From Dictyostelium discoideum (Eukaryota), in contig CM000151.3 of NCBI GenBank assembly GCA_000004695.1, forward strand, positions 4,960,001-5,024,000: a stretch of DNA of 64,000 nucleotides, read 5' to 3'. The first letter of the stretch is position 1. Every line of letters begins with the position of its first letter. The notes beneath the pieces are model-generated. The model worked only from the letters and a program-made list of their open reading frames with translations, was not told the DNA's origin and made no database searches. A program made the position numbers and the translations under genes. This document shows, in pieces, positions 5,140 to 40,195 of this stretch.

Positions 5140-5913
5140 ATGATAGATCATAATAATATTATAATTGGTAATTCAATTAATAGTAAAACATTTTCATTAA
5201 TTGAATCAGTAAAGAATGGTAAATTAAAAGAATGTATTGGATATTTAGAAAAGATTAGATTACAAAATCCGTCATTAGATTTAGGAGAAATAATAAATAG
5301 TGGTGATGACTGTGGCAATACAGCATTGCATTGGGCATGTTATAAGAAATGGTATGATATTGTAAAGTATTTACTATCGATGGGGGCCGACCCGAATATA
5401 GCAAACACTGATGAATTACAAACACCATTTCAATGGGCATGCATCGGTGGTGATCTCCACATAGTGAAATACGTACTCAACAATGGCGGCGACCCACACC
5501 TCCAAGACAAGCGTGGCTACAATTCACTAATTCACGCCACACAGTATAATGAAATCAGCGTAGTTCGTTATCTGTTGGATAAAGGCGGTGTAAATGTAGA
5601 CTCGCCCGATTTCCTACAAAAAACGTCTCTCCACTGGGCTGCCTACCAAGGTCATACCCAACTCCTACTCTTTCTAGTCAACAAAGGTGCCGACATCAAC
5701 GCCTTGGACTCCCTCGGCCGTTCTCCATTGCATTGGGCTGCCTTCAAAGGTAACTCTGACCCAATTAAAGCACTCTGTGATTTTGGATCAAAAACTATGG
5801 AAAAAGATTCAAACAATCAATCTCCATCTGACATCTGTTCTTCTCAAAATCATAATTATCTCGCTCATTTCATTAAAACATTTAATTATCATCCATTTAG
5901 AAAAGTTGGTCCT
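5140..5913 (+). CDS. Ankyrin-repeat DHHC-type palmitoyltransferase (Akr1/HIP14-like), exon 1 (ankyrin repeats; GTATGT donor at 5914)
   Basis: 258 codons with at least 5 ankyrin repeats (GNTALHWACYKK.., TPFQWACIGGDLHIVKYVLNNGGDP.., SLIHATQYNE.., TSLHWAAYQGH.., SPLHWAAFKGN). The 82-nt intron 5914-5995 ends AAAG. Confidence 0.75.
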
Positions 5914-5995
5914 GTATGTACTTCTTTTATTACTACTACTATTATTATCATCACATATTTATTAATATATATACTAATATATATTTTATATAAAG

Positions 5996-6584
5996 TTATT
6001 ATATAATATATTTTGGATTATTTTTGCAATTTTATTACAATTATATTTTGGATTTATATTTTATCATTTTACATTAATACCAGCATTGATATTATTTGGA
6101 GCAAGTTTAACATGTTGCAAATTATTTATTGAACCAATTACATTGTCAAATTCACCAAATCCATTATTACCAACATGGATGATAACTTCATTTACGGTGT
6201 CATTCGTATACTATGTTAGATATGTGGTACCAGCATTTCCAAATATAATTCTAACACATACGATCACATTGTTTGTTTATTCAAGTTACTATTATTGTGC
6301 ATTTAAATTGTTTTTCAGTGATCCTGGTACGGTTTCCTCTTCTACGACATCACAAGATTCAAAGGATTTCATTAATGCCGTCGAAAAGGAATTGGAAATA
6401 CCAGAGGTTTGTTCAACTTGTTTAATCAATAAACCAATTCGTGCAAAACATTGTAGAACTTGTAAAAGATGTGTAGCAAGATTCGATCATCATTGTGCTT
6501 GGATTAATAATTGTGTTGGTGTAAATAATAATTTATTATTCATAATTTTATTATGTTTATTCAGTTTAGCTTATATTATTAGTG
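5996..6584 (+). CDS. Ankyrin-DHHC palmitoyltransferase, exon 2 (TM helices plus DHHC-CRD: [37 protein letters not shown]); donor GTAACT at 6585 (alternative GTAATG at 6603)
   Basis: The frame is open from 5978. The DHHC Cys-rich domain is present, with hydrophobic segments before and after it. The exon ends in phase 1 and joins exon 3 (TA+ATG...). Confidence 0.65.
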
Positions 6585-6697
6585 TAACTTTTAATTTTAA
6601 ATGTAATGTATTAATTAAAAATATATATATATTAATATCTATATATATTTATATATATACTAATATTTTTAAAAATAATAATAATATTATTTTTTAG

Positions 6698-7413
6698 TAA
6701 TGTCAATTGATGAGAATTCGCCATTATATTCAGAAGGTAAAATGGAATGGTGGACATATCACTATTCAACTTATAAAGGTTTAATTTTATTTACAATTTA
6801 TAAATCATTCATTATGGCATGGTTAGCAAGATTATTATATGTACAAATAACTGGTGTAATTAATAATGTCACAATGTTTGAATTAATGAAACCACCAAAA
6901 GGTTCAAAGAAGAAATGTTGTAATCATGCTCCACAAGATCAAAATAATAATAATAATAATAATAATACTACTACTAATAATAGTAGTAGTAGCAGTAGTA
7001 GCAATAATAATAGTACAGGTACAAATAATGATAATAATAATAATAATAATTTAGGTACAAGTAGTAATGAAAGTGGTCAATCAAATTGTAATATTGATCA
7101 ACATAATGATCATGATGGTCAATCAAGTGAACCATTATTAAATGAAGTTTCAATTCAAATTCGTAGTGAAAATGGAGTTGAGGAGGATGATGATGATGAA
7201 AATAATAAAAATCCTTCAAATAAATCATTTAATAAAAACTCTAGAGATTTAGATCCAACTCAAACTAATTTTAGAGATTCAATTTTAATTCCAAAAAGAA
7301 CAAATAATAATGAAAATCCATATGATAAAGGTTCAAGAGAAAATATTAGAGAATTCCTTTATGATACTTCAAAATGGTTTAGAACTACAACTTTTAGTAA
7401 TAAAAACTTTTAA
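6698..7413 (+). CDS. Ankyrin-DHHC palmitoyltransferase, exon 3 (post-DHHC TM segments and N/S-rich C-terminal tail)
   Basis: The AG acceptor is at 6696-6697. It is followed by (V)MSIDENSPLYSEGKMEWWTYHYSTYKGLILFTIYKSFIMAWLARLLYVQITGVINNVTMFELMKPPKG... and an Asn/Ser-rich tail. The stop is at 7411-7413. Confidence 0.65.
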
Positions 7414-7699
7414 AAAAAAAAAAAAAAAAACATATTTGTTTTTTTAAGATTCGATTTAAAAAAAAAAAAAAAAAAACCACAAGAAATAACTTTATGTTTT
7501 AAATTTATTTGTTATTAATGAAAGGGTTTCAGTTTTAAAATTTTTAAGATGTTTGAAGGTGGAAAGCCTTTGAAACACTGCATTAGACTGATCCATTTTT
7601 TTTTTTTTTTGGGATTAGTCTGTTAGATTCTCAAAATCCTTGAGTATGTTTGGAGGCAAATGGCCAAAAAAAAAAAAAATGTAGAAAAAAGTGGAAAAA

Positions 7700-7713
7700 A
7701 TATATTTTACGAA
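7700..7713. repeat. Target-site duplication (3'-side copy) of the TRE3-like element: CGAAGTTCGAATTT
   Basis: It is identical to 12842-12855 and abuts the element poly(A) (plus-strand poly-T). Confidence 0.7.
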
Positions 7714-7850
7714 GTTCGAATTTTTTTTTTTTTTTTTTTTGATATAAATAAACTATTGTAGTATACAATTAGTATGTTATTTTTATTTATTTATTTTAGG
7801 TTTTTTAGTTTTTGTGAATTTAAAATAGTATGTTATTTTAGATTAGGTAA

Positions 7851-10800
7851 TTAATAATTAATTGGTGGTGTAATTGTTGGAATTGGTTCATTTGTGTTTA
7901 TGCTCCATTCTTTTTTAAATTTTTTGATGGTTTCGGACCATTGGGTTTCTTTTTGAGTTTTTGTGAGGTTGTTTTTAATTGAGAATTGGTTAAAGTTTGA
8001 TAACCTTCTTGAATATTCCAATCTTATTAGCTTGTGCCATTTTGATTTTAATATATCATAATCTAGTGTTGTGTTGTTTATTTGGTTGTTCCAATTGTCA
8101 ATTGATTGAGTTATATTGATGTCAAATAATGATTTGCATAACCATATCCATATTTGGTGAATAACTAATGAGATTATGTTCCAATATGCATGTGTTCTGA
8201 CTAGATCAAGATTTGTGTTTATATAATTCCAGTTGAACCTGTATTTTTTATATTGTGCGTTTTCTGCAAAATGAAAATTAATATTGATAGTTGGATCTGG
8301 TTTAAATGCTTTGTTGTTTGTTTGTGGTTTATAAATGAGTGTGTATAATTTTGTTGTTTGGTTTTTTGTTAGTGACCAGTTTTTGTTTCCATTGCAATTT
8401 TTATATATAAAATATTTTAATTTGTCGTGGTTAATGAAGTTGATTGTGTGCTGACAATTGAAAAACAAATGACCATAGGGATCATTATTCATTTCATTGT
8501 TGCAAATGGGGCAAACTTTGTTGTGTAGATGATTAATCGGAAGACATCTAGCATGGAATCTTTGCATTGTATCTCGGCCTTTTGGATCTTTTAATTTTTG
8601 AATTTTGACAAAAAGTTGGTCGTATGTGTATTTCCATAATAGTTGTATTGATTGTTGGTGCGAAGTAAGAAGTAGATCTGAATATTTCTTGCCAATATAG
8701 TCTTTTGATTTGCATTGGTGATTGTTTAGTATTGTCGAGTAGATTTCTTTGAGTGTTGGTGGTAGTGAAATATTATTTGTGTTTAATGTTTGAGAGGGTT
8801 GGTTTTTTGTTAATATTGGTTGTAGGATTTGAACTTTATCTTTTAGATGTCCAATTTGAGTTGCATAGTTTTCCCATTCTTTTTTTATTTTTATAAGGTA
8901 TGGAGAAGAGATTGATTTGTTGATGATTTGATCCATCCAACTTATCATGTATATTGAATTGTTTGCAGATTTATGCATTTGTAAAAATCTGTTGTATATC
9001 CAAATCTTTTGAGCAACTTGTCGTAATTGGATATTCCACATACCCCAACCTCCTTCTTTTAATGGTTTTAATGATCTATCATAACACATCAAAGGTATTT
9101 TTGCACGTGAATGGATGGTTGATGTGTTGTTTTCAATGGAATTGGTATCGAGAGTTGGTGATTCAGAATTTGCGGGAGAATTCATAAACCATGAGATTAA
9201 TTTATTAATTTGAATTTCTTCATCTTTTTTGGTTATTGGAATTCTTTTTGATTGTGGAATGTTGTTTATTATGTGTTTATCAGTGATTTTGTGGGGGTTG
9301 ATTTCTATTATTGCACTTTTGTCAAAATTTAAAGATGATGATGTTGAAGCGCAGAAATTATCGAAATGTTTGATTGATTGTTGTTGTTGTTCGTAGTTGA
9401 TGTTGTATGTTGTAGAGTCGTCTGCAAATTGGGTAAATTTGATTTTAATTTGTGGATTGGGTGAAATTGGTAATCCAATTATTGAATTGTCTGCATTTAT
9501 TGTTCTTGCTAATATTTCAATTACAATTACAAATAAAGTGGCTGAGATTGGGTCACCTTGTTTTACACCTCTTTTAATATCGAATTTTCTGGTCGTTTTA
9601 CCATTAATTGAAATTTTTGCTTGTGAGTCAGATAATAGCTTGTGGATTAAATTTATTAATTTTATTGGTATACCAATATGAATTAATGTTCTTTTAATGC
9701 TATCGTGAGAGATAGAATCAAATGCTTTAAAGAAGTCAAATAGTGTGATGATACCAGGGAGGTTTTTAGATTTGAGGTAATTGATTAATTCATTGATGTT
9801 GATGATGTTGTCTATGATGAATCTGTGGGGTACGAAACCAGTTTGGTTGTTGTTGATGATGAAAGGAAGTATTCTCAGAAGACGTGCATTGATTACTTTT
9901 GAGAGGATCTTGTAATCAGTGTTTAGAAGTGTAATGGGACGACGATTTGATATGAGTAAGGGGTTGCCTTTCTTGTATATTGTGTGTATAAGACCTTCGG
10001 TGAATTCTGTTGTGATGTGGTGAGGATTTTCTAGTATATCGTTGAATAATGTAGTGAGAATTGGTTTAACTTGGTTTAAATGATTAATGTAGAATGCGTT
10101 TGTAACGCCATCTGGACCGGGTGATTTGTTGGGGTTACAGGTTTTAATTGCAGCTTCAACTTCATCTTGTATAAATGGTGAGTCTAAACCATTCCAATAT
10201 TCATTTTTTATGATGGGCCATGTGTTTAGCATGAGCTGGTGAGTAATTGGACAACATATTTGTAAGCTATATAGATTTGTGTAGAATTCAACAAACGCAT
10301 TTTCAATTTGGTCGGGGTCGGATGTAATTATGTTACCATATTGGATTGATTCAATTTTTGCATCTTTTGATCTTTTGTTTAGTATTGCTGATAGATACTT
10401 GCTAGGTATTTCTCCATTTATATGTTTTTTTAATATGTTTGTGTGGTTTTGATGTAATTTGTTTTTGTTACATATAATATTGTATTCAGCGATGCATTGT
10501 TCTTCAAGATGTTTGAATTTTGCTGCTTTTTCTAATAGTATTTGTTTTGCACGTTGAGTTTGTTTGTCTTTGTTATATTGATAGTTTTTTAGAGTTTTAA
10601 TAATTTTTGATTTTACTTTTGACCAGTTTGTAAATTGATTGATTGATGTGTTATTGTGATTAGTTATTAAATGATTGATAATATTGATTGCTTCATGGTC
10701 ATTTGCAGTACCAGGTGATAATATCCATCTTTTCTTATGTTTATTTATTTGAAAAGGTGAAGAAATTGTTGTTGATATTGGATTATGATCTGATAATGAA

Positions 10801-12855: not shown

Positions 12856-12877
12856 AGTGAAATTTCTAAAAAAGAAA

Positions 12878-12950
12878 TGTCAAGTCAGAGGATCGAACTC
12901 TGGACCTTAGGATTATGAGACCTACGCTCTACCAACTGAGCCAACCTGAC
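12878..12950 (-). tRNA. tRNA-Met (anticodon CAU), elongator type
   Basis: On the minus strand it reads GTCAGGT-T-G-GCTCAGTTGGTAGAGC-G-TAGGT-CTCATAA-TCCTA-AGGTC-CAGAG-TTCGATC-CTCTG-ACTTGAC-A. The cloverleaf has a 7-bp acceptor stem with one G·U pair. The anticodon stem has the U31·U39 mismatch typical of eukaryotic elongator Met. Confidence 0.9.
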
Positions 12951-12964
12951 ATGTTGATATTTTT

Positions 12965-13235
12965 TGTAATAAAGTTACTCTATAAAATTAATAGATATTA
13001 AATATGCATATTACATTACTAATTATAGTTGACACACATTTAAATAATATAATAATAATAATAATAATAATAATACTGTCAACTCATTATGAATAATATA
13101 AATACTAAAGAATAATTTTATAAACAATATTGAATATTATAAATATAAATTAATATTAAATAAAGATAACAAAGTATTATTCAATTATATAATTATTAAT
13201 TATATATATTTATAAAGCTAACAAGCTTTATTACA
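12965..13235 (+). repeat. 5' LTR of the gypsy-type element
   Basis: TGTAATAAAGTTACTC...CTTTATTACA. It matches 17736-18003. Confidence 0.9.
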
Positions 13236-13348
13236 TTTGGCGACATCGTCTTTCAAAAAAAAAAAAAAAAAAAAATATACTATAAATATAAAGTTATCAA
13301 ATTATTCAATCAATTAAAATTTTACATTAGATTAAATTTAATTTAATA

Positions 13349-13437
<89 letters not shown>

Positions 13438-13571
13438 TTATTATGAAAACCGTATTTTTTTCGGGTAATGGAAAGGGTTAATCATTCTTTAATTTCAACC
13501 ACTAACTCTTATTAATTCATGGCGAGGAAATATCGAAAGCTGATATTATTAGAAAACTAAGAAACAATGCA

Positions 13572-16500
13572 TTGGAATATGCCGCAACATTGGATACAGA
13601 CTTAACAGCAATGGAGATAATTGAAGATCTTAAAGATGCTTTTGATATTGGTGATAGTGATGATTTATCAGATTTAACAAAGTTAGGAGAATATAAATAC
13701 AATACATTAGATATATTAATTGGTAAATTTCTTTCAAAATGTTCAGCAGTTGATATTTCAGAAAAGTTTAAAATACAATTGTTTTATTCAGCTGTTGGTA
13801 TTGAATTGGGTATTGAAATTACAAAATGTGCACCAAAATCATTAAAAAGAGCAATAGACATTGCAAAGTCTTGTGAAGATGGTTCAATTCGTATGAGAGG
13901 TAGATCAATGTATACTGGTCAATTGGTTGCAAAAACATTACAAGAATTTGGAACTCAAAAGTATCTTGGTTCTGGATCTGGTTATACAACATCACCACAG
14001 TACGTTACATCTCAAACTGAACAATCTACTGAAACTGAAGTATTAGCAACTCCAATTTATAAAAATCAAACATATTCACCACCACCATCACCTTATAAAG
14101 CACCACAAAATCAAGTAAATTCAATCACAAAATTTTGTAAATATTGCAAAAAGAAAGGTCATGTAATTCAAGAGTGTTGGTCTAAAGATAAAAAGAATAA
14201 TTATAATGAGAATAAACAATCATATAATAATCATAGCACTAATGCAATTACAATGGTTAATGATAAAACGATTAATTCTATTGGAACTGATAGTATGAAT
14301 GCAGCATTATTAATAAATGATAAGAATGTTAGAGGTTTAGTTGATACTGGTTCTTCTCTTACCATCATTTGGGAAAGTATTGCTAAAAAATTAAATTTAA
14401 AAGTTGAAGGTAAATCATTTTCAGTTAATTCAGCATCAAATAATGAAATTAAGATAGTTGGTAGTTGTGATACCATAATTAAATTAGGTAAAGCATCCGC
14501 AAAAGTTAATGTTAATATTGTTAAAGATAATGATACTTCAATCGATTGCATTTTTGGTGTAGATACACTTATTGGATTGAAATTAATAATTGATTGCAAG
14601 GAAATGATCATTAAGAATCTTGAATTTAATGTTGGTACAAGATTAATCACCAGAGAAACCAAACCAATTGTTTGCAAAATTGATCTAAATATATTAGAAA
14701 AAGTATCAAAACCAATGGCTGAGTTATTAATCAAAAATGAAGAGATTTTTGAAACCAAATTGTCAAAACCAGGATCATTAATAGATGTTGAACATTCAAT
14801 TAAATTAACTGATGAAAATGTTTCTGTTTATACTCCACCATACAAAACTAGTCCAGCTGATAAAGAATTCATTGAAGAATACATTAAAGATGCATTAGAT
14901 AAAGGTATAATCGAGAAATCAGATTCATCACAATACGGTTCTCCAATAGTCTTATCCAGAAAGAATGATAAAATTAGATTTTGTGTTAATTATAAAAAAC
15001 TAAATGACCTCACAATTAAAGATAGATATCCACTTCCATTAATTTCTGATTGTTGGTATTATCTCAAAGATGCAAAAGTTTTCTCAAAAATTGATCTTAC
15101 TTCTGGTTATTATCAAATCAAAATGAAAGAAGAGGACAAGGATAAAACAACCTTTGTCTCTCATATGGGTCAATTTAGATATGTTGTAATGCCATTTGGA
15201 TTATGTAATGCACCAGCAACTTTTCAAAGATACATGAATGAATTATTAAAGGATGAATTAAGAAAAAGTAATATTGGGTTTATTGACGATTGTATAATTT
15301 ATAGCAAGAATAATGAATATCATATTGAACATGTCAAACTATTATTCGAAAAATTCAAAGAAAAAGGTGCAAAGTTACAAATAACTAAATGTGAGTTTGA
15401 AAAAGAAGAGATCAAGTTTTTGGGATATATCGTTTCAAAGAATGGTATTACTTATGATAGTTCAAAGTTTAATGAATTATTAAAAACACCACCTCCATCA
15501 AATCAAAAAGAATTAATGAAATTACTCGGTACTGTCAATTACTTTAGAACATTCATTAAAAATTTCACTCATTTAACTTCATCATTTTATCCACTATTAA
15601 AGAAGGGTGTTAATTTCAAATGGACTGATGAATTGGAAAATGATCGTGTAAAATTATTTACTACATTAGCACAAACTAATCTTTTAAGTTTTCCACAAGA
15701 TACAGATGATAATGTTATTGAAACTGATGCTTCAATTATTGGTATTGGTGGTGTAATGATTCAAAATGGTAAACCAGTTTCTTATTATTCAAGAACATTA
15801 AACAACGCTGAAAAGAATTATTCTGTTACTGAAAGAGAATGTTTGGCAATCATTGAATCAATTAAATATTTTAAATCCTATATCAATGGTAGAAAAGTAA
15901 AAATCATCACTGATCATCAACCTTTGAAATATCTCTTAACTGGTAAATTTACTGATCGTATTACAAGATGGACTGTATTACTTCAAGAGTATAATTACGA
16001 AATTATATATAGACCTGGTAAAGAAAACTTTTTAGCTGATGCATTATCAAGATGTCCAGATAGAGATCAACAGCCAATTGATTGTGATATTCCAGAAAAG
16101 ATATTTACAATTACTCACTATCCAGTAGCTTCACCATCAACTACAATTTTACCAAGAGTCTTACCATCAAGATCAAATCAAACATCTAATGTTTCACCAG
16201 CTACAACAATTCAACCACCAAATTCATCAAGTTCAAATCAATCATCAAATATCCCACCAACAACAAACCAATCATCAAATATTACAAATCAACCAATAAA
16301 TACTTCATCAATGAATTTAAATCAATCATTATCAAATCAAGCAACAACCGCTAGATTATTGAATAGTGTACCTATCTCAATCAACAATGATAATATTAAT
16401 ACAACAACTCCACAATTTACACAAGAGTCAATAAGAAAAGAGTTGGAAAAAGAAAATTATTATAGAGCAATGTATAAATATCTTGAAGAAACAAGACTTC

Positions 16501-17723
16501 CAGACAATGCACAAGCAGCAAGAAGAATTTTGTTCGAGTCTGAATTTTATTCAATGATTAATGGATTTCTTTGTCACGGTTTAAAACATACTTTATCAAG
16601 TAAGAAATCTCATTTTAAACATCTTCAAATTGTAGTTCCAAAAACTATGACTAAATGGATAATGGAAATATTTCATGATTCGCCACTTACTGGAGGACAT
16701 TTTGGATTATTAAAAACTGTCGCAAAAATCAAAGAAAGATTCTATTGGATTGGTATGATTAAGGATATAAAAGAATTTATCGATAAATGTACAACTTGTT
16801 TACAAATTAAAAGAAAGTATGGTCCAAAAGAAGGTTTACTCATTCCAATTGAGATTGAACCTGAACCATTTAATACAATTGGTATTGATTTTATTGGTCC
16901 AATTACAAAAGATAATGCTCAAGTTTATTTGTTGGTTGTTATGGATTATTTTACTAAATGGCCAGAAGTTTTCTTTACCCTTGATATGGAAGGGGAGACT
17001 GTAGCTCAATTATTGTTGTATGAAATCTATACTAGATATGGGGTTCCAAAGAAGTTGGTTTCTGATCGTGGTAAGAATTTTTTAAGTAATGTAGTCTCTG
17101 GTGTTAATAAATTATTCGGTGTTCACAAATTAACAACTACTGCTTATCACCCACAATGTGATGGTCAAACTGAAAATTTCAATAATACATTAATTAAGAT
17201 GCTCAAAGCTTTTATTGGTAATGAATTGTATGGCAATTGGGGTGAATTATTAAGATGTGTTTTATACTCATACAGAATTACACCACATGTTTCAACTGGT
17301 TTTTCACCCTTTTTCTTACTTTTTAATCGTCAACCAACTTTACCATTAGATACAACTTTAAATGTAAATTTTTATTCAAATTCACTAAGATTAGATTTCG
17401 CTGATAATTATGCACAATCCGTAAATAATAATCTTAAACGTGCCTTTTGGTTTACAAAGAATAATCTCGATAAAGCTCAAGAATTACAAAAAACAAATTA
17501 TGATAAAGGTCGTCGTCCAACAAATATTCAAACAGGTGATTTTGTTTATTTACATACACCATATTCACAAACTTCTATTGGTCCAAAGAAATTCTATAAA
17601 CCTTGGAGAGGTCCTTTTAAAGTTCAAGAAAAAGTTAGCGATGTTACATTCAAATTAGATATGGGTAATCTTAGAGATCATAAAGTAGTCAATATTGAAA
17701 GATTGAAAAAAATTTTCAACTAA
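13572..17723 (+). CDS. Gag-Pol polyprotein (1383 aa, intact): CCHC zinc knuckle, aspartic protease, reverse transcriptase, RNase H, integrase
   Basis: The zinc knuckle is CKYCKKKGHVIQEC. The protease motif is LVDTGSS. The RT motifs are YVVMPFGLCNAPATFQRYM and FIDDCIIYS (YxDD). The integrase HHCC finger is H..H...CTTCLQIK. A DDE core and a C-terminal GPF/Y-type module (WRGPFKV) follow. The order PR-RT-RH-IN indicates Ty3/gypsy. Confidence 0.9.
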   Translation: MEYAATLDTDLTAMEIIEDLKDAFDIGDSDDLSDLTKLGEYKYNTLDILIGKFLSKCSAVDISEKFKIQLFYSAVGIELGIEITKCAPKSLKRAIDIAKSCEDGSIRMRGRSMYTGQLVAKTLQEFGTQKYLGSGSGYTTSPQYVTSQTEQSTETEVLATPIYKNQTYSPPPSPYKAPQNQVNSITKFCKYCKKKGHVIQECWSKDKKNNYNENKQSYNNHSTNAITMVNDKTINSIGTDSMNAALLINDKNVRGLVDTGSSLTIIWESIAKKLNLKVEGKSFSVNSASNNEIKIVGSCDTIIKLGKASAKVNVNIVKDNDTSIDCIFGVDTLIGLKLIIDCKEMIIKNLEFNVGTRLITRETKPIVCKIDLNILEKVSKPMAELLIKNEEIFETKLSKPGSLIDVEHSIKLTDENVSVYTPPYKTSPADKEFIEEYIKDALDKGIIEKSDSSQYGSPIVLSRKNDKIRFCVNYKKLNDLTIKDRYPLPLISDCWYYLKDAKVFSKIDLTSGYYQIKMKEEDKDKTTFVSHMGQFRYVVMPFGLCNAPATFQRYMNELLKDELRKSNIGFIDDCIIYSKNNEYHIEHVKLLFEKFKEKGAKLQITKCEFEKEEIKFLGYIVSKNGITYDSSKFNELLKTPPPSNQKELMKLLGTVNYFRTFIKNFTHLTSSFYPLLKKGVNFKWTDELENDRVKLFTTLAQTNLLSFPQDTDDNVIETDASIIGIGGVMIQNGKPVSYYSRTLNNAEKNYSVTERECLAIIESIKYFKSYINGRKVKIITDHQPLKYLLTGKFTDRITRWTVLLQEYNYEIIYRPGKENFLADALSRCPDRDQQPIDCDIPEKIFTITHYPVASPSTTILPRVLPSRSNQTSNVSPATTIQPPNSSSSNQSSNIPPTTNQSSNITNQPINTSSMNLNQSLSNQATTARLLNSVPISINNDNINTTTPQFTQESIRKELEKENYYRAMYKYLEETRLPDNAQAARRILFESEFYSMINGFLCHGLKHTLSSKKSHFKHLQIVVPKTMTKWIMEIFHDSPLTGGHFGLLKTVAKIKERFYWIGMIKDIKEFIDKCTTCLQIKRKYGPKEGLLIPIEIEPEPFNTIGIDFIGPITKDNAQVYLLVVMDYFTKWPEVFFTLDMEGETVAQLLLYEIYTRYGVPKKLVSDRGKNFLSNVVSGVNKLFGVHKLTTTAYHPQCDGQTENFNNTLIKMLKAFIGNELYGNWGELLRCVLYSYRITPHVSTGFSPFFLLFNRQPTLPLDTTLNVNFYSNSLRLDFADNYAQSVNNNLKRAFWFTKNNLDKAQELQKTNYDKGRRPTNIQTGDFVYLHTPYSQTSIGPKKFYKPWRGPFKVQEKVSDVTFKLDMGNLRDHKVVNIERLKKIFN

Positions 17724-17735
17724 AAGGGGGGGATA

Positions 17736-18003
17736 TGTAATAAAGTTACTCTATAAAATTAATAGATATTAAATATGCATATTACATTACTAATTATAGT
17801 TGACACACATTTAAATAATATAATAATAATAATAATAATAATACTGTCAACTCATTATGAATAATATAAATACTAAAGAATAATTTTATAAACAATATTG
17901 AATATTATAAATATAAATTAATATTAAATAAAGATAACAAAGTATTATTCAATTATATAATTATTAATTATATATATTTATAAAGCTAACAAGCTTTATT
18001 ACA
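17736..18003 (+). repeat. 3' LTR of the gypsy-type element
   Basis: Same sequence as the 5' LTR with a 3-bp microsatellite difference. Confidence 0.9.
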
Positions 18004-18457
18004 TTTTGAAATATTTTTGAAATATTTTTGCACCATTACGTTTTATTTCCATTCCAAAAAAAAAAAACGTTTTATTTTTCATTGGGAAGAAACTAATAAT
18101 TGTGTTATCCAATTCAAAAAAGTATTTTTCATTTAAATTATTTTTTTTATATAATTCTACAGTATTTCATGAATGTTCATTTTTATTCTTTATTATTTTT
18201 TTTTTTTTAATTTTTAATTTTTTTTTTTTTTTTTTTTGAAAATTAAAATCAAAACCAAGATATTTTTTTTTTTTTCTTCCCTTATTTTTTTTTTTTTATT
18301 TTTATAACTATTCTTTAATAGAATTCTTTTTTTAAAAAAAAAGAACACCATGGAAGCTTTTTTGTTTTTTTTTTAAAAATGGATATAAATTATTATTTTT
18401 TTTTTTTAAAAAAATAAAACAAGATAATATCCAAAAATAAATAAAACAGAAAAAAAA

Positions 18458-21254: not shown

Positions 21255-21328
21255 GCCTTAGTAGCTCAGTTGGTACGAGCGTGAGACTGAAGATCTTAAG
21301 GTCGCTGGTTCGATCCCGGCCTGAGGCA
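21255..21328 (+). tRNA. tRNA-Phe (anticodon GAA)
   Basis: GCCTTAG-TA-GCTC-AGTTGGTAC-GAGC-G-TGAGA-CTGAAGA-TCTTA-AGGTC-GCTGG-TTCGATC-CCGGC-CTGAGGC-A. The cloverleaf is canonical and the acceptor stem is fully paired. Confidence 0.9.
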
Positions 21329-21345
21329 AATATTTTTTGATGGTT

Positions 21346-22374
21346 TTCCAATGGCTGATGATCACTCCGCCGAAAAGACACAGTCTGATCACAGGTAAAA
21401 AAAAAAAAAAAAAAAGTTAAATCATACAGATAACAACACAACCAATACAAATAATACCTCCACAACCTCAACAACAAAAAACGAAAGTGCAAAAATCGAC
21501 ACACCTAAAAAACAAACCCTAACAAACCAACTCTCACTAAACAAAGGACTTGATAATCAATTAGATATCATTGCACCTCCATCAATCACAAGACCACTCT
21601 CCTTCTTAGAAAAAAACAATAACACCATCAACATTAAGTGTTACTTTAATCAACCACACATCCATGAAGAATTAACCTCTAAAGATGACACAAGAATCCA
21701 ACAAATTCACAAAAATATTCACAAACTCTTCGAAGATATACTGTCGCCATCAGCATTTAAAATAATTGGTGCAACAGCCTTGGTAAATTGCAACGTTGAT
21801 AAATTAACTTCAATAATCAACCTTCAAAACCAACTTGCACTAAATATAGACAAACTCAACTATAGATTCGATATATCATCAAATGATTATGCAACCATTA
21901 AAACATTCATTAAAACGTACTCACCCAAACATGCAAACGATGCAATTATAAACAACCTCACTAAATTCACCAGTTGTACATCAATTGAATCATTTACTGT
22001 CACATACTCATATGCTGTTGCGTTTAAAAGCTACATTATAACATATCATCTAATTGATCACACACAACATTGTTGATCAAAAGATCGAACAACCATCTGG
22101 TATCACAAGATATATCAAAGCTGCAACACGTAGTGTCACTAAACACAAAATTCAACATGCAAAAAATGCAGATATGGCAACAACTATAAAAAATGCTCTC
22201 ACAAACCCAAATATTAACAAAAACTATCAACCACCAAAAAACAACATTAACACCCCACCAATCAACGAAATTGCAAATTCCAATCGCAATAATAACCCAC
22301 TTCAAAATAGTGGTTCAAAAGCTACACTAAATGAATCACTTAATAATAACGGGAAAAACTCATTATCAATGTGA
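21346..22374 (+). mobile_element. TRE3-like retrotransposon fragment, plus-strand arm. It covers ORF1 from its ATG (no 5' UTR) to inside ORF1b. It begins 18 bp downstream of tRNA-Phe and is truncated at the palindrome centre.
   Basis: It is ~90-95% identical to 12680-11640 on the opposite strand. The ORFs 21780..22076 and 22054..22374 reproduce the ORF1a end and the ORF1b start. Confidence 0.8.
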
Positions 22375-31863: not shown

Positions 31864-32773
31864 GGATATTATAAAAATGAAATTTTAAAAGATGGTTGGG
31901 GTAAATTATATGTTGAAATGAATAAATTTATGACACCAGAAAATTCATCAATTTATTATGAAGCAACAGGTTATTTAGAAGGTTATTTAACATGGTCAAC
32001 CACATGGAATTATAGTCAAGCTTATTTCCAAAATTATATGAATGGAACCAATGAGAGTGATATTCCAACACCATTAGTTGAATTTTTAAAAATCAATTAT
32101 GATTGGATGACAAGTACATTCTCAAATAGAGATGAAAGTGTATATGATACACAAGTTTCAAATGTAATTTATCAATTTGAAGGTTTTGCAAGAGGTTATC
32201 AACAAGCAGCAGACTCTGATAAACAATTAACAACCCTTCAATTATTATTACTTCAATATGCTGGTGATCTTGAAGATGTTGCAGGTTATTTGGAATATGA
32301 AATGGCACAAAATAAAACCGAATATATCAACAGAGTTAAATCATTGAAAGAGATTGAAACTTTGTTTGCAGTAAAAGGTAGATGCTCAGGTTTAGTTCGT
32401 ATAACACCAGACTATGGTGAATTATTCATCTCTCATACTACATGGGGTTCTTACTTTACTGCAGGTTATAGAATTTTCAAACGTATAATCATTCCAGATC
32501 CAACTGTACCAGGTAATGAAATCTTATTCGCATCATATGCTGGTGTTTTAACATCTGATGATGACTTTTTCATGATACCTTCAACTGAAATGGTTATCAT
32601 TGAAACTACAAATGATATTTTAAATACTTCTCTCTATCAATATGTAACTCCAAATTCTTTATTATATTTTGTACGTTCAATAATTGCAAATCGTCTTTCA
32701 AATACTGCTCAAGAATGGACAAATAATTTTATTCAATATAATTCTGGTACTTATTCAAATCAATGGATGATTG
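31864..32773 (+). CDS. Phospholipase B-like protein, exon 2
   Basis: It contains the PLB-like motifs ATGYLEGYLTW, CSGLVRITPDYGELFISHTTW, and NQWMI|V. A GTAAAG donor at 32774 gives phase 1. Confidence 0.7.
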
Positions 32774-32885
32774 GTAAAGTATATTTTTTAAATTTATTAT
32801 TAAATTTAAAATTTTAATAATATAAATATTAATATTAATATATATATTATTTTTTTTTTTTAATGAATTTATATATTAAAATTAG

Positions 32886-33493
32886 TTGATTATAAATTAT
32901 TTACACCATATCAACCATTACAACCAAATACATTTTGGATTATTGAACAATTACCAGGTGGTTTTATGTCGGCTGATATGACAGAGGTATTGGCATTAGG
33001 TAATTGGCCATCATTTAATAGACCATTTTTCCCAGAGATTTATGATGCAATGGGTTATAGTTATTATGAGAAATTGTATGGTGATATAATTTCATACGAT
33101 TTAAATCCACGTTCAAAAATGTTTAGACGTGATGTTCCAAATGTAATGTCATTGGATGGTATGCAACAAATTATGACTCAAAACAACTATAAATCGGATC
33201 CATTCTCTGGTGGTTTCCCTGGTAATGCAATTGCTGCTCGTTATGATCTTGGTGGTGGTCCTGCTGAACCATTAAGTTGGAGTTTTATTGGTTTACATGG
33301 TGCTATCGATTCAAAGATTACCTCTTACTCTTTACTTCAACAAAATCAAGCTATCGCTATCAATGGTATGACTGTAACTCCAGATTGTCCACCTTTCACT
33401 TGGAATTCAAATTGGAGTACTGTTTCTGCTCATTATGGTTCACCCGAAACTTTTGATTTCGATTGGATATCTATTACTATTACTGATAAATAA
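32886..33493 (+). CDS. Phospholipase B-like protein, exon 3
   Basis: (V)DYKLFTPYQPLQPNTFWIIEQLPGG...DLGGGPAEPLSW... The stop is at 33491-33493. Confidence 0.7.
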
Positions 33494-34420
33494 TTATAAT
33501 AATTATTATAATAATAATATAATAATAATTTAAATAAAATTTAATTAATTTTATTTTTATTTTTAATTATTTTATTTTATTTTTTTTTTTTTTCAATTTC
33601 AAAAAAACTTAATTGATAATATGTTTGTCAATATATTTAAAATTAAATAACAATTTGGTTTAATAATACCAAGAAAAGATCATTAATTGTTGATAATCAA
33701 AAGTCAACTACAAACATTTTTTCAAATAAAAGATTATTATTATTATTTATTATTTTGTATGAATTTTATAAAATAAACTAATATTTTTTTAATCGAGACA
33801 TAAAAAAGTAATTAAAATCAGGAATTCAAATAATATAAACCATAAAATTTATAAAATTCTAATATTTATTTATATATATTTGTTTCTTTGATTGAAATTC
33901 ATTGAAAAAATTAATGAAATTTCATTAAATAAATAAATAAATAATGAATAAATAAATAAGCAAACAAACAAATAAATAAATTTAATATAATTTTTAAAAA
34001 CATTTAATTCCTTTTTTTTTTTTAATTTTTTTTTTTTTTTTTTTTTTTTTTCTAAAATTAACCTGTATACAATTAATATTAGTATATTTGTTTGTAATTA
34101 TAAATATAATAAAACCTTTAATAGTTTTTTTTTTTACAAGTAAAATTTATAAATACAAATTTTTTAGTTCAGAGTTGTAAAACCATTAAAATAAAACAAC
34201 TTTTATTTTAGTCATTCTATTTTTTTATTTCTTTTTTATTATATTTTCAGGGGTGAAACTGGTAGAATTTTATTAATACTCTTGTATCCAAATATGGAAT
34301 TGCCGATGTAATATTCGTTAAAAAATATTGTCAACAAAATTCTCTTTAAACCAAAAAAAAATGACTCATTTTCAAAGTTTTATTTGTAGTTTTTTACAGG
34401 GTCTCTAAAAGAGGGGTTGG

Positions 34421-34462
<42 letters not shown>

Positions 34463-34463
<1 letters not shown>

Positions 34464-34740
34464 TTTCAAATTTTGAATTGTATTATTACTTTTGATTAAA
34501 ACATCTTTTTTGTCCAAACTTTTTTCTAAATCTTTTTTTATTTTATCGTCTGGTTCGTGATTGATGTTTATGACGTATTTGAATTGTTTTTTTTTTAATT
34601 GAGTTTTATCCACAATTTCGCTTATTTTTAGTAGGCATGTGTGTTGCTTAATATTTGTGGTGTTGTTTGTGATTTTCATTTTATTTTCTTTCTATCTTTT
34701 TTATTTTTCTTTAAAAAGTTAAAAATCTGGAAATTTTCTG
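34463..34740 (-). mobile_element. Second, unrelated retroelement 3'-end fragment ending in a ~37-nt poly(A) (plus-strand poly-T 34426-34462). It sits distal to the first, consistent with an older insertion displaced by the newer one.
   Basis: The ORF fragment reads MKITNNTTNIKQHTCLLKISEIVDKTQLKKKQFKYVININHEPDDKIKKDLEKSLDKKDVLIKSNNTIQNLKQ* followed by the A-tract. Confidence 0.4.
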
Positions 34741-34755
34741 ATTAACTTGGGTTCC

Positions 34756-34816
<61 letters not shown>

Positions 34817-34818
<2 letters not shown>

Positions 34819-35046
34819 TTATAGAAAGTACTGAGTGAATTATTGTATTTTTTGAGATGTTTAGGAAGTTCTATTGTGTGAAGAGGTGAGTTCCATTGTC
34901 TGCTAAATTGTAATAGCTTTAGCGAGATTAGTGAGTCTAATTTATTTTGTTCTTCTGGCCGTTGCTTTGATTTGATTCTTAATGTTTTGTTTATAACCGC
35001 TTGTGTCCTGTCCCATGCAGCTCTTTGTGTTTTAATTAGTTCACGT
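34817..35046 (-). mobile_element. 5'-truncated retroelement 3' end (ORF C-terminus plus short 3' UTR) ending in a ~58-nt poly(A), seen as plus-strand poly-T 34758-34816. Its proximal end lies ~48 bp upstream of tRNA-Trp, so it is TRE5-like by position.
   Basis: G+C is elevated relative to the flanks. The minus-strand ORF fragment reads ...KTRELIKTQRAAWDRTQAVINKTLRIKSKQRPEEQNKLDSLISLKLLQFSRQWNSPLHTIELPKHLKKYNNSLSTFYK*. The long terminal A-tract is present. The inner boundary of the fragment is approximate. Confidence 0.5.
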
Positions 35047-35093
35047 GTTTTCAAATACGCGTAAAGGAGGTATATTTTCCATTTTATATTCAT

Positions 35094-35181
35094 TGACTCC
35101 TTAGCATAGTGGTTTATTGTAATTGTCTCCAAAACGTTAGAAGTTAGCAGTTGGTCCAGGGTTCAACTCCCTGAGGGGTCT
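35094..35181 (+). tRNA. tRNA-Trp (anticodon CCA) with a 13-nt intron (35133-35145) at the canonical 37/38 position. Pol III terminator TTTTT at 35186.
   Basis: GACTCCT-TT-AGCATAGTGGTTTATTG-T-AATTGT.. The anticodon stem is ATTGT/GCAGT around the loop CTCCAAA, with the intron AACGTTAGAAGTT, then A38. The variable loop is TGGTC. The T arm is CAGGG-TTCAACT-CCCTG. The acceptor 3' strand is AGGGGTC. The ex-B box GGTTCGAATC lies at 35209-35218. Confidence 0.7.
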
Positions 35182-35672
35182 GTGTTTTTAAACCTAGCTG
35201 AAGTCGTAGGTTCGAATCTCTTCATTAAAATCTTAGGCTTTAATCTTATTTCCAAGCTCACTTCCAAATAGAGTAATGGTAGAAATTTTTTGGTCTTTTA
35301 AAATTTTTTTTAGGAAACAAAATAAATATATTTAAATTTAAAATAAATTAAATAAAAAAATAATAATAAAAACTATTTGATAAAAAAAAGTTATAGAAAT
35401 TGTTCCTTCTATTACTAAATTAATTTTCTAATCCAAATTCCTAATATTTTCATCAAAACACAACAATTGAAATTTCTAAATAAATTTTTAAAAAAAAAAA
35501 AAAAAATTTAAGTACGTAATAATTTTTTTTCATTTATTTTTTGATTTGAAACTTTTTAATTGAAAAAATAAAAATATCTTCTGATTTTTTTTAAATTTTT
35601 TTTTTTTTTTTTTTTTTTTTTTGATTCCGAGCAAAATCCAAAAAAAAAAAAATAAAAAAACTGATCACGTAA

Positions 35673-36072
35673 ATGGTAAAAATGAAAAAAATAAATTATC
35701 TTTTATTTATTTTTTTAATATTATTTAAATTTTGTGAAATTGAATGTACAACAAATTATGAATTTTTAACACCCAATAATAATCAATATCTATATCCATC
35801 ATCAAGCGAAAATACTCAATGCGAAACAAATGTAATATATATTTTAGTAAATACAGATGATGCTCCAATGGGACAAACTACTTTAGAAGGTCAGAGTTCA
35901 CCTCCCGGACTTTTTACTTGTGAAAGAAATTATATTTTTAATGATACATCTGCAGTTTTTTCAATAAAATCCAAAAAAATTGATGTGGGTAATCTTGGAA
36001 TTCCATTTTATTTAACCAAAAATGGCATACTTCCCTTTTCTTTTATAACTGATATTACATTTAATTGTACTT
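35673..36072 (+). CDS. Large (~1420 aa) type I membrane glycoprotein with EGF-like module, exon 1 of 6 (signal peptide MVKMKKINYLLFIFLILFKFCEIEC)
   Basis: The GTATGT donor is at 36073 and the exon ends in phase 1. Confidence 0.6.
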
Positions 36073-36145
36073 GTATGTATAGCTATTTTATTGTTATTAT
36101 TATAAATTATTAAATTTTATTCATTTATTAATTTATTTATTTTAG

Positions 36146-37072
36146 TACCAAATATTGAAAGTTTAACATTTATACAATCAGAATTAAAATATGTAAATTC
36201 AAAATTTGAATCATTATTTCAAATTACAGGATTTGGTGAAATTTTTACACAAGTCAAAAATATAAAAGTCAAATTTGGAAATGATATTCCAACAACTTTC
36301 ACAAAATTATCACAATCACCTTATTATTTATTAACGATTGAATATCCAGATATTTCAAAGAATATAATATCAGATTGGGTAGTTTCAGTTTATTTTCAAA
36401 ATAATGTTAAAAATATAATATTAACTACAAATTTTGTTCAAGGCTCAGCTGGGTTATTTAATTTAAATGTATCTCCAAAATCAAGTTCAAAATTTGCAAT
36501 TTACACAAACCCATCTATGAAATATTTTTTATTATCTCAACCAGTATCAGCATTTTATTTCTTGTATGCTTTTTCAGGTAATAAGCTTCAACCTCAACCA
36601 ATATGCTCGCATGGTACAATTTCAAATTCAACATGTTTTATGAATTTTAGAAATGATATTTTACTTTTCAATTCACCAAAAACTCAACCTAATAGTACAT
36701 CTTATGGTTTATTTATACCAAATGGTAATAGTTATACTTCATTCTCTCAAGGTAGTTATAAATCAAATGAATTATTATTAATTGGTTCAAGTGACTATGA
36801 CGATTTAAGTTTTTTTAATTATAATACTTTCTCTATTCATTTTAATTCAAATTATTCATCCATTTCAAATTGTCCTTCAATTATCTATTTAAAAATTTCT
36901 GATGGTTTATATATTATAAAAGAATTTGAATTTCCATATGGTTATAGTTGGGGTGATTATAATAATACTTCTTATAGAATCTCTCTCCCATCAACTCCTT
37001 TTTTTTCAATTAATTTTAATTTTACTTTAGAAACTATCAATCAATTACATAGTTTAAATCAACAAATTTTTT
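36146..37072 (+). CDS. EGF/TM surface protein, exon 2
   Basis: The frame is open from 36148 and continuous with ORF 36517..37080. Donors and acceptors are consistent in phase, and the exon has many N-glycosylation sequons. Confidence 0.6.
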
Positions 37073-37121
37073 GTATGTAATTTAAATTATTTATATATTA
37101 TTATTTTTAAATTAATATTAA

Positions 37122-37160
<39 letters not shown>

Positions 37161-37169
37161 TATATATAG

Positions 37170-37532
37170 CAAATGATATATACCCACCAAAAATTTTAAA
37201 TTATAATATAGAATTTTTACTTGGCACAACAGTTGGAATATCATTAACAACTACAGATTATTATAATTCAACAGAACAATCAACAGGTATTAGAATGATT
37301 TATATTTGTAAAAAAGTTTTTAGTTTAGAATCTTTAATTTCAAAAGAAAATAATATTGAAAAATGGTTTTTAGTTCATGATACTTTAGATTGTCCATTTT
37401 ATTCATCAGATTTTTCAATATCTGTTATTGATTTTGCAGGAAATTCAAAAAAAATTAAATTTGGTGATTATATTGAATCAAATTTAACTTCAAATATTTT
37501 ATTCGTTTATCCTCTTGATATTTTTTGGTCAG
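37170..37532 (+). CDS. EGF/TM surface protein, exon 3
   Basis: The AG acceptor is at 37168-37169 and the GTAATT donor at 37533. It is continuous with ORF 37295..37573. Confidence 0.55.
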
Positions 37533-37645
37533 GTAATTATTATTATTATTTCATTTTTTTAATTATTAATTAATTATAAATTATAAATTATTATTTATTA
37601 ATTATTAATTATTATTATTTTTTTTTTTTAAAAAAAAAAAAAAAG

Positions 37646-37972
37646 TTTATGATGAAATGAATGTATCATTTAAATATTCAAATTTAAATGTTACAAATCA
37701 ATCATTTATAAATAAGATTATTATTAATATACCAAAACTAAATAATTTTGGAAATATTATTGGACTTCCATTTGAAATTAAATATACAGATTATAGAATT
37801 GAAAAAGGTATTGCATCATATAATTCAAAATCAAAATTATTTGAAGGTTTATTTTTTGTACCTGCAAATTTAAAAACTGGTCAAGTTTATTATGAATTGA
37901 AATTACCAACTTCAACTATTGGTTTATTATATAAAAGTGGTGCTAATGGTAATTTTAATGTTACATCAAATG
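37646..37972 (+). CDS. EGF/TM surface protein, exon 4
   Basis: The AG acceptor is at 37644-37645 and the GTAAGT donor at 37973. Confidence 0.6.
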
Positions 37973-38033
37973 GTAAGTTATTTATTATTTATTAAATTTA
38001 ATTTATTAAAATTATTAAAATTATTAAATTATT

Positions 38034-38088
<55 letters not shown>

Positions 38089-40113
38089 CATTTGATTCAT
38101 TTGGACCAACTATAAAATCAATTATTAAATATCCAAATGAATCAAATTTAATTAATAGTAATAGTTCAACATTAATTGGATTTAAAATTTTAGTTGAAGA
38201 ACAATTAAACGGAATTGATGATGGTTATGTAATTATTAGAGGATCAATTGATAAATCAATTTATAATTTTTCATTATCAATTTCAAATGCTGTTATTGGA
38301 GGTACACCATTATTAAGTGAATATGAATTATTTATTGATTTTAATAGTTCAATATGTATAAGTCAAAATTATACAATATCAGAGATTTATTTAAGAGATA
38401 CTCAAGGTTGGTCCACTAGTTTTATTACAACACCAAATCAACCGCCACAATTCCAAGCTTTACATCCATTTATTCAAATGAATAGTTGGCCTGAAAAAAT
38501 GTTAGAAATACAAGTACTTTGTCAAACTATACCAATCGTTTATGAAAAACAAAGTTTACTTGGCTTTAATATCACACCAAAAACTATCAATATTTTTGGA
38601 TTACCATCTGAAAGAACTGTGACCTATGATTTTATAATTGAAGATTCCAATGGTATTAAAAAAGGACAAGATGTTTATATTTATGTTACTACAACTGAAT
38701 TAGATGTAATTAGAAAAAAAGCTACAATCATCAAGATTTCAAATACATTCCATCATTTCCAATGTAATTTCACGTTTCCATGGGGTTTTGGTGGTTTTAA
38801 TAATAACTATAGTAGTTCAATTTATGGTTTCATTAATAATAATGGTAAATTTAATGGTTTTTCTCAAAAAGATATTGGTGCCACCTTTACAGATTATGTT
38901 ACTACTGGTAAAACAATTAGTTTCCCAAGTAATCCTATAATTTTAAGTACATCTGGTGTTATTGGTTCTGATAGTAATACTACATTTAATATCATTGGTA
39001 GAAACTTATCAAAAGTTAAAAAAATTAAAGCAATCTACCAACAAAATGAATATTACTTTCCAATAATTTCAATAACAAGTCAAAAAATAACAACATCAAA
39101 TAATGCATCGTTACCTCAAATGCAATTATCACTAGTATATGATAATGGTGCTGATGTTGATATTACCTCTGAATCTATTAATGTAGTTAGTGAACTAATG
39201 TTAACACCAAAACAACCATATGTACCAATAATAACACCAACTCCTTCACCAACTCCTTCACCAACTCAACCACCAACTCAACCACCAACAAATCCTCCTC
39301 AAAAATGTTTAGGTACTCCAGAATGTGGTGGTATATTACAAGGATCATGTAAATCTGGTGGTTGTATTTGTATTTTACCATGGACTGGTAATGATTGTTC
39401 ATCTAAAATTATTGAAGTTGAACCAAAAGTTGATGAGAATGAACCTTCTTCATCAATTATTATTGATAATAATAATAATAATAATAATAATAAAACAACA
39501 TCAAGTTATTCAGGTTCAATTGCAATAGTTTCAGTTAGAGAAATTAATTCAGCTAGTAATGCAATTATTAATGAATTTCAATTTAAAGAATGGAATAAAA
39601 CTATATTAAGTGATGATGATATTTCAACTAAACATTCCTATTCTACGTCATTTAAAAGAAATTCATCTTTATTAAATCCAACTAATATTACCACAATTTT
39701 AGAAATCTTTAAAAAAGAAACACCAATTTCATTTGCAAATCAAAATTTTACAATGTTAAAATCTTCAATTAAATATACAATCACTTTAGATTCTTATGAT
39801 TTTTCAACTAAGATTTCAAATCTTCAAGTGATAATGTCAGCATCGATTCAATCATCTCAAACTGATGATATTTGTTCAAAGAAAGAATTCGGTGATTCAA
39901 TTTCAGATTATTCAAATTATGTTAAAATTCAAGTTGATACTTATTCACTTTATGGTAAATTTATAAAGAGAGGTATTATAGATTCTGAAATTATTAATAT
40001 TCAAAATGATTTATTAGATGAATCAATGAATACAATTTCAAAATCAAATTCTCAACAATCTTTTATTGGTATAACAATTCCAATGTTTACTAATACTGTA
40101 CTTTTAGATCCTG
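38089..40113 (+). CDS. EGF/TM surface protein, exon 5: Ig/IPT-like beta-rich region, a (PTPSPT..QPPTQPPTNPP) linker, and an EGF-like Cys-rich module CLGTPECGGILQGSCKSGGCICILPWTGNDC
   Basis: The AG acceptor is at 38087-38088 and the GTAAGT donor at 40114. It includes ORF 38478..40145. Confidence 0.65.
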
Positions 40114-40195
40114 GTAAGTTTTATTTTTTTTTTTTTTTTTTTTAAAATATTAAATTAATTTCTTTTTTTTTTTTTTTTTTTTAAAATATAAATAG

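Follow-up and report, generated by a model that had tools for sequence, protein, structure and literature searches.

Two A-rich blocks upstream of an apparently intron-containing tRNA-Trp(CCA) gene of Dictyostelium discoideum are very probably one TRE5-A retrotransposon copy

TRE5-A (formerly DRE) is a retrotransposon of Dictyostelium discoideum that targets positions roughly 50 bp upstream of tRNA genes, the element's 5' end being turned toward that of the tRNA gene (PMC3159450); the integration window is 47 ± 3 bp and the orientation is strict (PMC5391098). The TRE5-A.1 form has the architecture AB-ORF1/ORF2-BC (ORF, open reading frame), where a B-module of ~290 bp stands in the 5' untranslated region (UTR) and again, as a duplicate, in the 3' UTR, the 5' copy carrying the ORF1 start codon, and a C-module of 134-137 bp makes up the 3' end (PMC3159450). 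TRE5-B and TRE5-C have no 3' B-module, and retrotransposition requires a stem-loop in the C-module (PMC3159450). New TRE5-A insertions are flanked by target site duplications (TSDs) of 10-16 bp (PMC9012585), and their 5' junctions often contain an additional nucleotide (PMC5391098). The reference genome contains 102 copies, of which 5 are full length (PMC5006619). Here we describe an element of this type next to a tRNA-Trp(CCA) gene in a stretch of 64,000 nucleotides (nt) of D. discoideum DNA (assembly GCA_000004695.1, contig CM000151.3, positions 4,960,001 to 5,024,000 of the forward strand). This whole stretch is called the window, and coordinates refer to it unless a comparison locus is named. 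The element is oriented on the minus strand and the tRNA-Trp gene on the plus strand.

We find that the block at 34378..35046 is very probably one 5'-truncated TRE5-A.1-type non-LTR retrotransposon (LTR, long terminal repeat) of 669 bp, placed head-to-head with, and 48 bp upstream of, the intron-containing tRNA-Trp(CCA) gene. The first base of the element is 35046 and the tRNA 5' end is at 35095, so that the spacer (35047..35094) measures exactly 48 bp. The initial annotation had already proposed a minus-strand TRE5-type element at about this distance, and both its position and its orientation are as expected for the family. It had also interpreted the block as the 3' ends of two unrelated elements, each closed by its own A-tract and laid down by successive insertions, the newer pushing the older outward. 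That part does not hold, for the interval 34376..35046 recurs elsewhere as one contiguous unit and the two A-tracts coincide with the junctions between ORF2 and the B-module (ORF2/B) and between the B- and C-modules (B/C). The 57-nt and 37-nt runs are therefore best read as expanded versions of the A-runs that TRE5-A.1 normally has at ORF2/B and B/C, and not as terminal tails.

Reading away from the tRNA gene on the minus strand, the element begins with the truncated 3' end of ORF2 at 34815..35046, consisting of the last 76 codons (RELIKTQRAAWDRTQ...NNSLSTFYK) and a TAA stop at 34815..34817, in agreement with the 5' truncation proposed earlier. The internal A-run of the ORF2/B junction follows at 34760..34816. 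It is 57 nt long, correcting the 58 nt at 34758..34816 given before, and leads into the canonical B-module start CCTGGGAACCC, which is not a TSD. The 3' copy of the B-module occupies 34463..34759 (297 bp) and contains an ORF1-type start codon at 34677..34679 (MKITNNTTNI..., with Ile at residue 10). Alignment to four canonical copies assigns 34378..34462 to the proximal ~85 nt of the C-module. This portion opens with the 37-nt A-run of the B/C junction at 34426..34462, whose position and length stand as first annotated, and continues with the stretch GTAAACCAACCCCTCTTTTAGAGACCCTGT (GTAAACC...CCCTGT) at 34396..34425, an A6 at 34390..34395 and CTACAAATAAAA at 34378..34389, the last canonical bases of the element. 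The element had been thought to end in the 37-nt tract; it extends 48 nt past it, up to 34378.

Two minus-strand open reading frames cover parts of this block. The first, 34815..35132, is the ORF2 tail running on through the spacer and into the tRNA gene in antisense, and its initial interpretation as an ORF2 C-terminal remnant overlapping the tRNA, not a gene, is confirmed by its homologues and by the RVT_1 proteins described below. The second, 34422..34679, starts at the B-module ATG and runs into the A37 as poly-Lys. Both are by-products of the element. Long A/T runs are frequent in this DNA, which has a guanine-cytosine content of 22.7 % and 69 A/T runs of at least 18 nt in 64 kb, so that the 37-nt run taken alone does not stand out; no A/T run of the window is longer than the one of 57 nt.

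The relationship between the two parts of the block became visible at the protein level. The translation of the ORF2 part matched 16 short proteins labelled "hypothetical", from D. discoideum and D. cf. discoideum, and proteins of this repeat were found only in D. discoideum and close relatives. Longer homologues reach N-terminally into a Cys/His motif, and one of these (P0001) begins with the peptide encoded by the B-module part, the first sign that the two parts are related. The genomic loci of five homologue proteins served as comparison loci (L001 to L005). Window positions 34376..35046 align as one block to L001 8548..9185, at 93 % including run-length gaps, and the aligned block comprises the ORF2 part, the 57-nt run, the B-module part, the 37-nt run and ~50 nt beyond it. 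With gaps set aside, identity to L001 is 227/230 nt (98.7 %) in the ORF2 part and 290/297 nt (97.6 %) in the B-module (L001 8814..). The same contiguous order is present at L004, and L002 and L005 keep the order with internal deletions. Every comparison copy lies just upstream of its own, different tRNA gene and on the opposite strand. A-runs are found at both junctions in every copy, with lengths that vary from 17 to 57 nt at ORF2/B and from 20 to 37 nt at B/C. The comparison copies account for 17-35 nt and 20-28 nt of these ranges, respectively, and the window copy for the 57 and 37 nt.

The family assignment comes from architecture and from published landmarks. On the comparison copies the B-module measures 297 bp and the C-module 136 bp, counted from its leading A-run to ...CCAATTC. 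All five published landmarks, Ile-10 of ORF1 and T15, C26, A35 and C38 of the C-module (numbered from the 3' end), match the L001/L005 consensus, and Ile-10 is also present in the B-module ORF of the window copy itself. A 5' B-module copy that reads into ORF1 is visible at L001 6172.., and the TRE5-A.2 variant, keeping only the last ~87 bp of C, at L001 8175... When the longest homologue of the tail was used in an exhaustive search of proteins, it matched the extreme C-termini of two RVT_1 proteins of 993 and 1056 amino acids, the tail family aligning to residues 809-949 and 877-1032, respectively. Because the tail family sits at the C-terminus of RVT_1 proteins, the ORF2 part is a true ORF2 C-terminal remnant. 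In this family ORF2 thus encodes a reverse transcriptase and closes with this tail; of ORF2, the window copy keeps the last 76 codons only. Searches of Pfam with both ORFs and the longer tail homologues gave no significant match, and a repeat search within the window with either part returned only low-complexity noise.

The locus agrees with TRE5-A.1 on most points. The 48-bp spacer falls within the 47 ± 3 bp integration distance upstream of a gene transcribed by RNA polymerase III (Pol III), and the five comparison copies are found at 47-50 bp. The orientation is the strict one in which the element 5' end faces the tRNA 5' end, here with the truncated 5' end proximal. The 3' UTR consists of a duplicated B-module with the ORF1 ATG followed by a C-module, a combination absent in TRE5-B and TRE5-C. 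The window copy further shares with TRE5-A.1 the order ORF2 end, A-run, B, A-run, C, an undeleted B/C junction and 97.6-98.7 % identity to the landmark-matching copies, and it is 5'-truncated, as are most genomic copies (PMC5006619). It differs in that the last 51 nt of C, the terminal oligo(A) and a TSD of normal length are missing and the internal A-runs are longer. The non-autonomous deletion derivative TRE5-A.2 has its family and modules in common with the window copy. However, TRE5-A.2 carries a ~72-bp deletion over the B/C junction and retains the terminal 87 bp of C (PMC3159450), whereas in the window copy the B/C junction is intact and the terminal part of C is gone instead.

Four points weigh against the assignment to a single TRE5-A copy. 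The identity as TRE5-A would follow from the published landmarks and the architecture and not from alignment to a named reference sequence. Target-primed reverse transcription does not typically give a copy that is missing the C-module end, and the only candidate duplication is 8 bp, with no TSD of normal length. Finally, an orthologous site was not found by exact look-ups of P0013 and two ORFs of the window, by protein searches with the neighbouring genes or by a metagenome scan with a 26-nt sequence from the spacer.

How the copy may have come about can be outlined from the literature. The TRE5-A ORF1 protein would contact TFIIIB at the promoter region of the tRNA gene, integration would proceed via target-primed reverse transcription, and an early stop of reverse transcription would leave a 5' truncation in which only the 3' 669 bp were copied (PMC5633606, PMC5391098). 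A small deletion after insertion would then have removed the final 51 nt of the C-module together with the terminal oligo(A), and the distal TSD wholly or for the most part. The position, the orientation, the module order, the 5' truncation and the loss of the 3' end can be read directly in the window. No promoter, ORF1, endonuclease region, reverse-transcriptase region or 3' stem-loop is present, so the element is expected to be inert and should be immobile.

The missing part of the C-module is its terminal 51 nt (TGAGATC...TTATCCAATTC; canonical TGAGATCTAGCATCTCAAGGAGAAGCAACTAATAATTGCGTTATCCAATTC), which correspond to the stem-loop published as essential. The window copy therefore has neither the 3'-terminal stem-loop (last ~54 nt) nor a terminal oligo(A). 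This absence marks a damaged copy and not another family. We looked for the missing end in the flank, where the best score was 14 against a null mean of 16.4, and across the minus strand of the window, in case an insertion had split the module as at L004; it was found in neither. At the control loci, searching for TSDs with no positional restriction gave AT-rich decoys of 10-20 bp, and a search anchored on the terminus of the element was used there instead. The window copy has a candidate 8-bp TSD, TTTGAAAA (TTTTCAAA on the plus strand), with the proximal copy at 35048..35055 (spacer positions 40-47) and the distal copy at 34369..34376, 1 nt past the last canonical element base. The placement of this repeat fits a TSD, yet as an unrestricted match it has P of about 0.05 and it is shorter than documented TSDs. 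A longer distal copy of the TSD was sought across the whole window and none was found.

We consider it moderately likely, and likelier than any other cause, that the C-module end was lost in a small deletion after insertion that reached into the distal TSD. Alternatively, the element may have been inserted already 3'-truncated, reverse transcription having been primed on the internal A-rich ...AAAUAAAA, with the 8-bp repeat as a genuine TSD and neither stem-loop nor tail copied. The proximal 8-mer does lie at spacer positions 40-47, exactly where the proximal TSDs of the controls end, and the distal 8-mer is offset by a single nucleotide from the last canonical base; additional nucleotides at 5' junctions are known to be frequent (PMC5391098). 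We nevertheless regard this course of events as unlikely. The C-module stem-loop is essential for retrotransposition (PMC3159450), TSDs are 10-16 bp in experiments (PMC9012585) and 12-16 bp in the five controls, and an AT-rich match of 8 bp is expected at P of about 0.05 when its position is not restricted, unrestricted searches yielding even longer decoys. If insertion in the truncated state were true, TRE5-A would be able to produce 3'-truncated insertions, and the 3' stem-loop, although reporter assays show it to be essential, would not have to be carried over into the new copy.

The target of the element is a tRNA-Trp(CCA) gene of 87 nt at 35095..35181 on the plus strand, called by ARAGORN and matched by Rfam RF00005 with 44.8 bits, where the gathering score is 29. 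We divide it into exon 1 (35095..35132, with the anticodon at 35129..35131), a predicted 13-nt intron AACGTTAGAAGTT between positions 37 and 38 (35133..35145) and exon 2 (35146..35181). The A box (35102..35112) and the B box (35160..35170) are intact. A T5 run at 35185..35189, 4 nt past the end of the gene, is a probable RNA polymerase III terminator, a function assigned from general Pol III biology. At 35209..35219, 28 nt downstream of the gene on the same strand, the motif GGTTCGAATCT resembles an external B box and fits the GTTCRAnYC core; in D. discoideum, 66 % of the tRNA genes have external B boxes of this type downstream (PMC3159450).

Several lines of evidence speak for the intron, in agreement with the initial annotation. 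The Rfam covariance model places 14 extra nt after position 37, corresponding to the 13-nt intron plus A38. The spliced 74-nt form is also called as tRNA-Trp by ARAGORN and has a normal 5-nt variable loop. Minimum-free-energy folding was uninformative, giving no cloverleaf as the minimum for either the pre-tRNA or the spliced form, and therefore fixed-structure energies were used. The cloverleaf of the intron model has -16.7 kcal/mol, compared to -13.2 kcal/mol for an intron-less model with a long variable arm. Taken together, the Rfam alignment, the ARAGORN call on the spliced form and the energies give the cloverleaf of a nuclear tRNA with a canonical intron once the insert at 37/38 is removed. 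The short intron directly 3' of position 37 and the intact promoter boxes and terminator resemble those of other intron-containing eukaryotic nuclear tRNA genes, and we saw no unusual difference from them.

The gene had also been claimed to fold only if the intron is removed. This is correct insofar as the intron fold is the better one, but ARAGORN does fold the 87-nt gene as it stands. Its drawing uses no intron, even in intron mode; the anticodon stem is ATTGT/ACGTT, and a variable region of 18 nt is left unpaired. The gene would then be an intron-less 87-nt tRNA with a long variable arm; it might also be a pseudogene. We hold both readings to be very improbable. The stem includes a T.T mismatch, the fold is 3.5 kcal/mol worse than that of the intron model, and no stem is possible in the 18-nt arm (0.0 kcal/mol). 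In addition, tRNA-Trp belongs to the class I tRNAs, the covariance model puts the extra 14 nt after position 37, splicing would yield a canonical tRNA-Trp of 74 nt whose variable loop measures 5 nt, and both internal promoter boxes, the T5 terminator and the external B box are intact. The intron model is thus clearly the better-supported fold, on account of its energy, the stemless 18-nt arm of its competitor, the class I membership of tRNA-Trp and the canonical spliced form. Residue C32 could presumably pair with the intron G located 3 nt before the 3' splice site, following the anticodon-intron pair rule. A 13-bp intron was reportedly described in D. discoideum tRNA-Trp genes by Peffley and Sogin in 1981. 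Our literature search found no paper confirming an intron of D. discoideum tRNA-Trp specifically; some D. discoideum tRNA genes are stated to carry introns, with no more specific statement (PMC13063481).

That two independent TRE5-type insertions struck the tRNA-Trp locus, a newer one (34817..35046 with a 57-nt tail) pushing an older one (34463..34740 with a 37-nt tail) outward, is the least probable of the alternatives and can be set aside: a long A-run does follow each fragment and stacking is real TRE5-A behaviour (L001, L003; PMC9012585), but identical junctions occur in the same two-part arrangement at unrelated tRNA loci, the TRE5-A terminus is the C-module and not the ORF2 stop (PMC3159450), a C-module end or TSD follows neither A-run, and the outer fragment is the B-module of the same element, with homology running 48 nt past the second run.

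Stacking at this locus was likewise rejected on the junctions themselves. The A57 is followed by CCTGGGAACCC and the A37 by GTAAACC, both of which are module starts, and neither a C-module end nor a TSD separates the parts.

True stacks of TRE5-A are present at two of the comparison loci. At L001 5862..9260, next to a tRNA-Thr gene, a TRE5-A.2 unit (5911..8265) begins 49 bp from the tRNA and ends in ...GTTATTC(A)13; the TSD (AA)TCGAATTCATGAAA comes after this newer unit and is followed by an older copy truncated within ORF2. At L003 6138..6230, next to a tRNA-Leu(CAA) gene, the newer unit is just 7 nt plus A23: CCAATTC(A)23, with the 14-bp TSD GGGACAACCACATG on its flanks, has the spacer on one side and, on the other, an older copy that is truncated. 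Across the five comparison copies, insertion is at 47-50 bp, 10-23 nt of oligo(A) close the element and TSDs measure 12-16 bp, the last agreeing with the 10-16 bp of the experimental work (PMC9012585). Stacked TRE5-A, at L001 and L003 and in a sequencing read described in PMC9012585, is of the same family as the window copy and uses the same target window. The difference is that units of a stack end in ...CCAATTC(A)10-23 and a 14-16-bp TSD before the next unit, and the window has neither.

In the window, L001, L004 and L005, an oligo(A) run accompanies every TRE5-A module boundary, namely A/B, ORF2/B, B/C, a position inside C, and the terminus. As a speculation, oligo(A) at all boundaries would fit a composite 3' UTR that arose when an ancestral copy, either stacked or deleted, was read through.

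A TRE5-A copy linked to a tRNA-Trp gene is ordinary and belongs to already known biology, given the ~100 TRE5-A copies of the reference genome. The result matters rather as a correction to annotation. The long internal A-runs at ORF2/B and B/C mimic poly(A) tails, and one TRE5-A may in consequence look like two elements. A complete C-module end together with a 10-16-bp TSD between units distinguishes a stack from a single element. The missing C-module end is a minor curiosity, and an intact DGLT-A elsewhere in the window is of more interest.

The element and the tRNA-Trp gene are flanked by a phospholipase B-like gene (31918..33493) and by a large, multi-exon gene with PF22933/PF25820-type domains (35673..40145). 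For these genes we found no near-identical annotated D. discoideum protein, the best named matches being 61 % and 43 % identical. Protein searches with both yielded a 1.1-kb Logan contig and otherwise nothing but other species or paralogues of at most 43 % identity. The strain or the region may thus be missing from the annotated protein sets, or the search index may be limited.

ARAGORN and Rfam identify four tRNA genes in the window. One of them, tRNA-Met(CAT) at 12877..12951 on the minus strand, has a structurally complete DGLT-A element of the Ty3/gypsy type 13 bp upstream, at 12965..18006 on the plus strand. Its LTRs (12965-13238 and 17736-18006) are ~272 bp long and differ at 3/274 aligned columns. 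The primer binding site TGGCGACATCGTCTTTC (13238..13254) matches the published one exactly, and an uninterrupted ORF of 1383 amino acids (13572..17723) encodes protease, reverse transcriptase, RNase H and integrase. A polypurine tract precedes the right LTR and Gag contains a CX2CX4HX4C finger. The D. discoideum reference genome is described as holding 20 DGLT-A copies, 0 of them full-length, with the family perhaps extinct there (PMC5006619, PMC5633606). A complete element is unexpected for this reason, and it may have been recently active, unless the DNA stems from a strain other than the reference.

Just past the right LTR, at 18086..18121 on the plus strand, a TRE5 C-module is represented by its terminal ~30-36 nt (GAAGaAACTAATAATTGtGTTATCCAATTC), followed by A6. 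This tail is head-to-head with the tRNA-Met gene and would be ~92 bp upstream of it if DGLT-A were removed. The arrangement resembles a true stack, formed by tRNA-targeting elements of two different kinds. The minus strand also carries two truncated pseudogene copies of tRNA-Met(CAT), at 20171-20235 and 20295-20355, ~89 % identical to 12903-12966, and between them, at 20257-20279 on the plus strand, is a TRE5 C-module tail of 12 nt with A11. Downstream of a tRNA-Phe gene (21255..21328), the plus strand at 21383..21415 reads ACAGTCTGATCACAGGT and then A19. This motif has 27-28 nt in common with L004 7152-7179 and 8967-8993, which flank the insertion that splits the TRE5-A C-module at that locus, and probably represents the tail of a retroelement from a different family.

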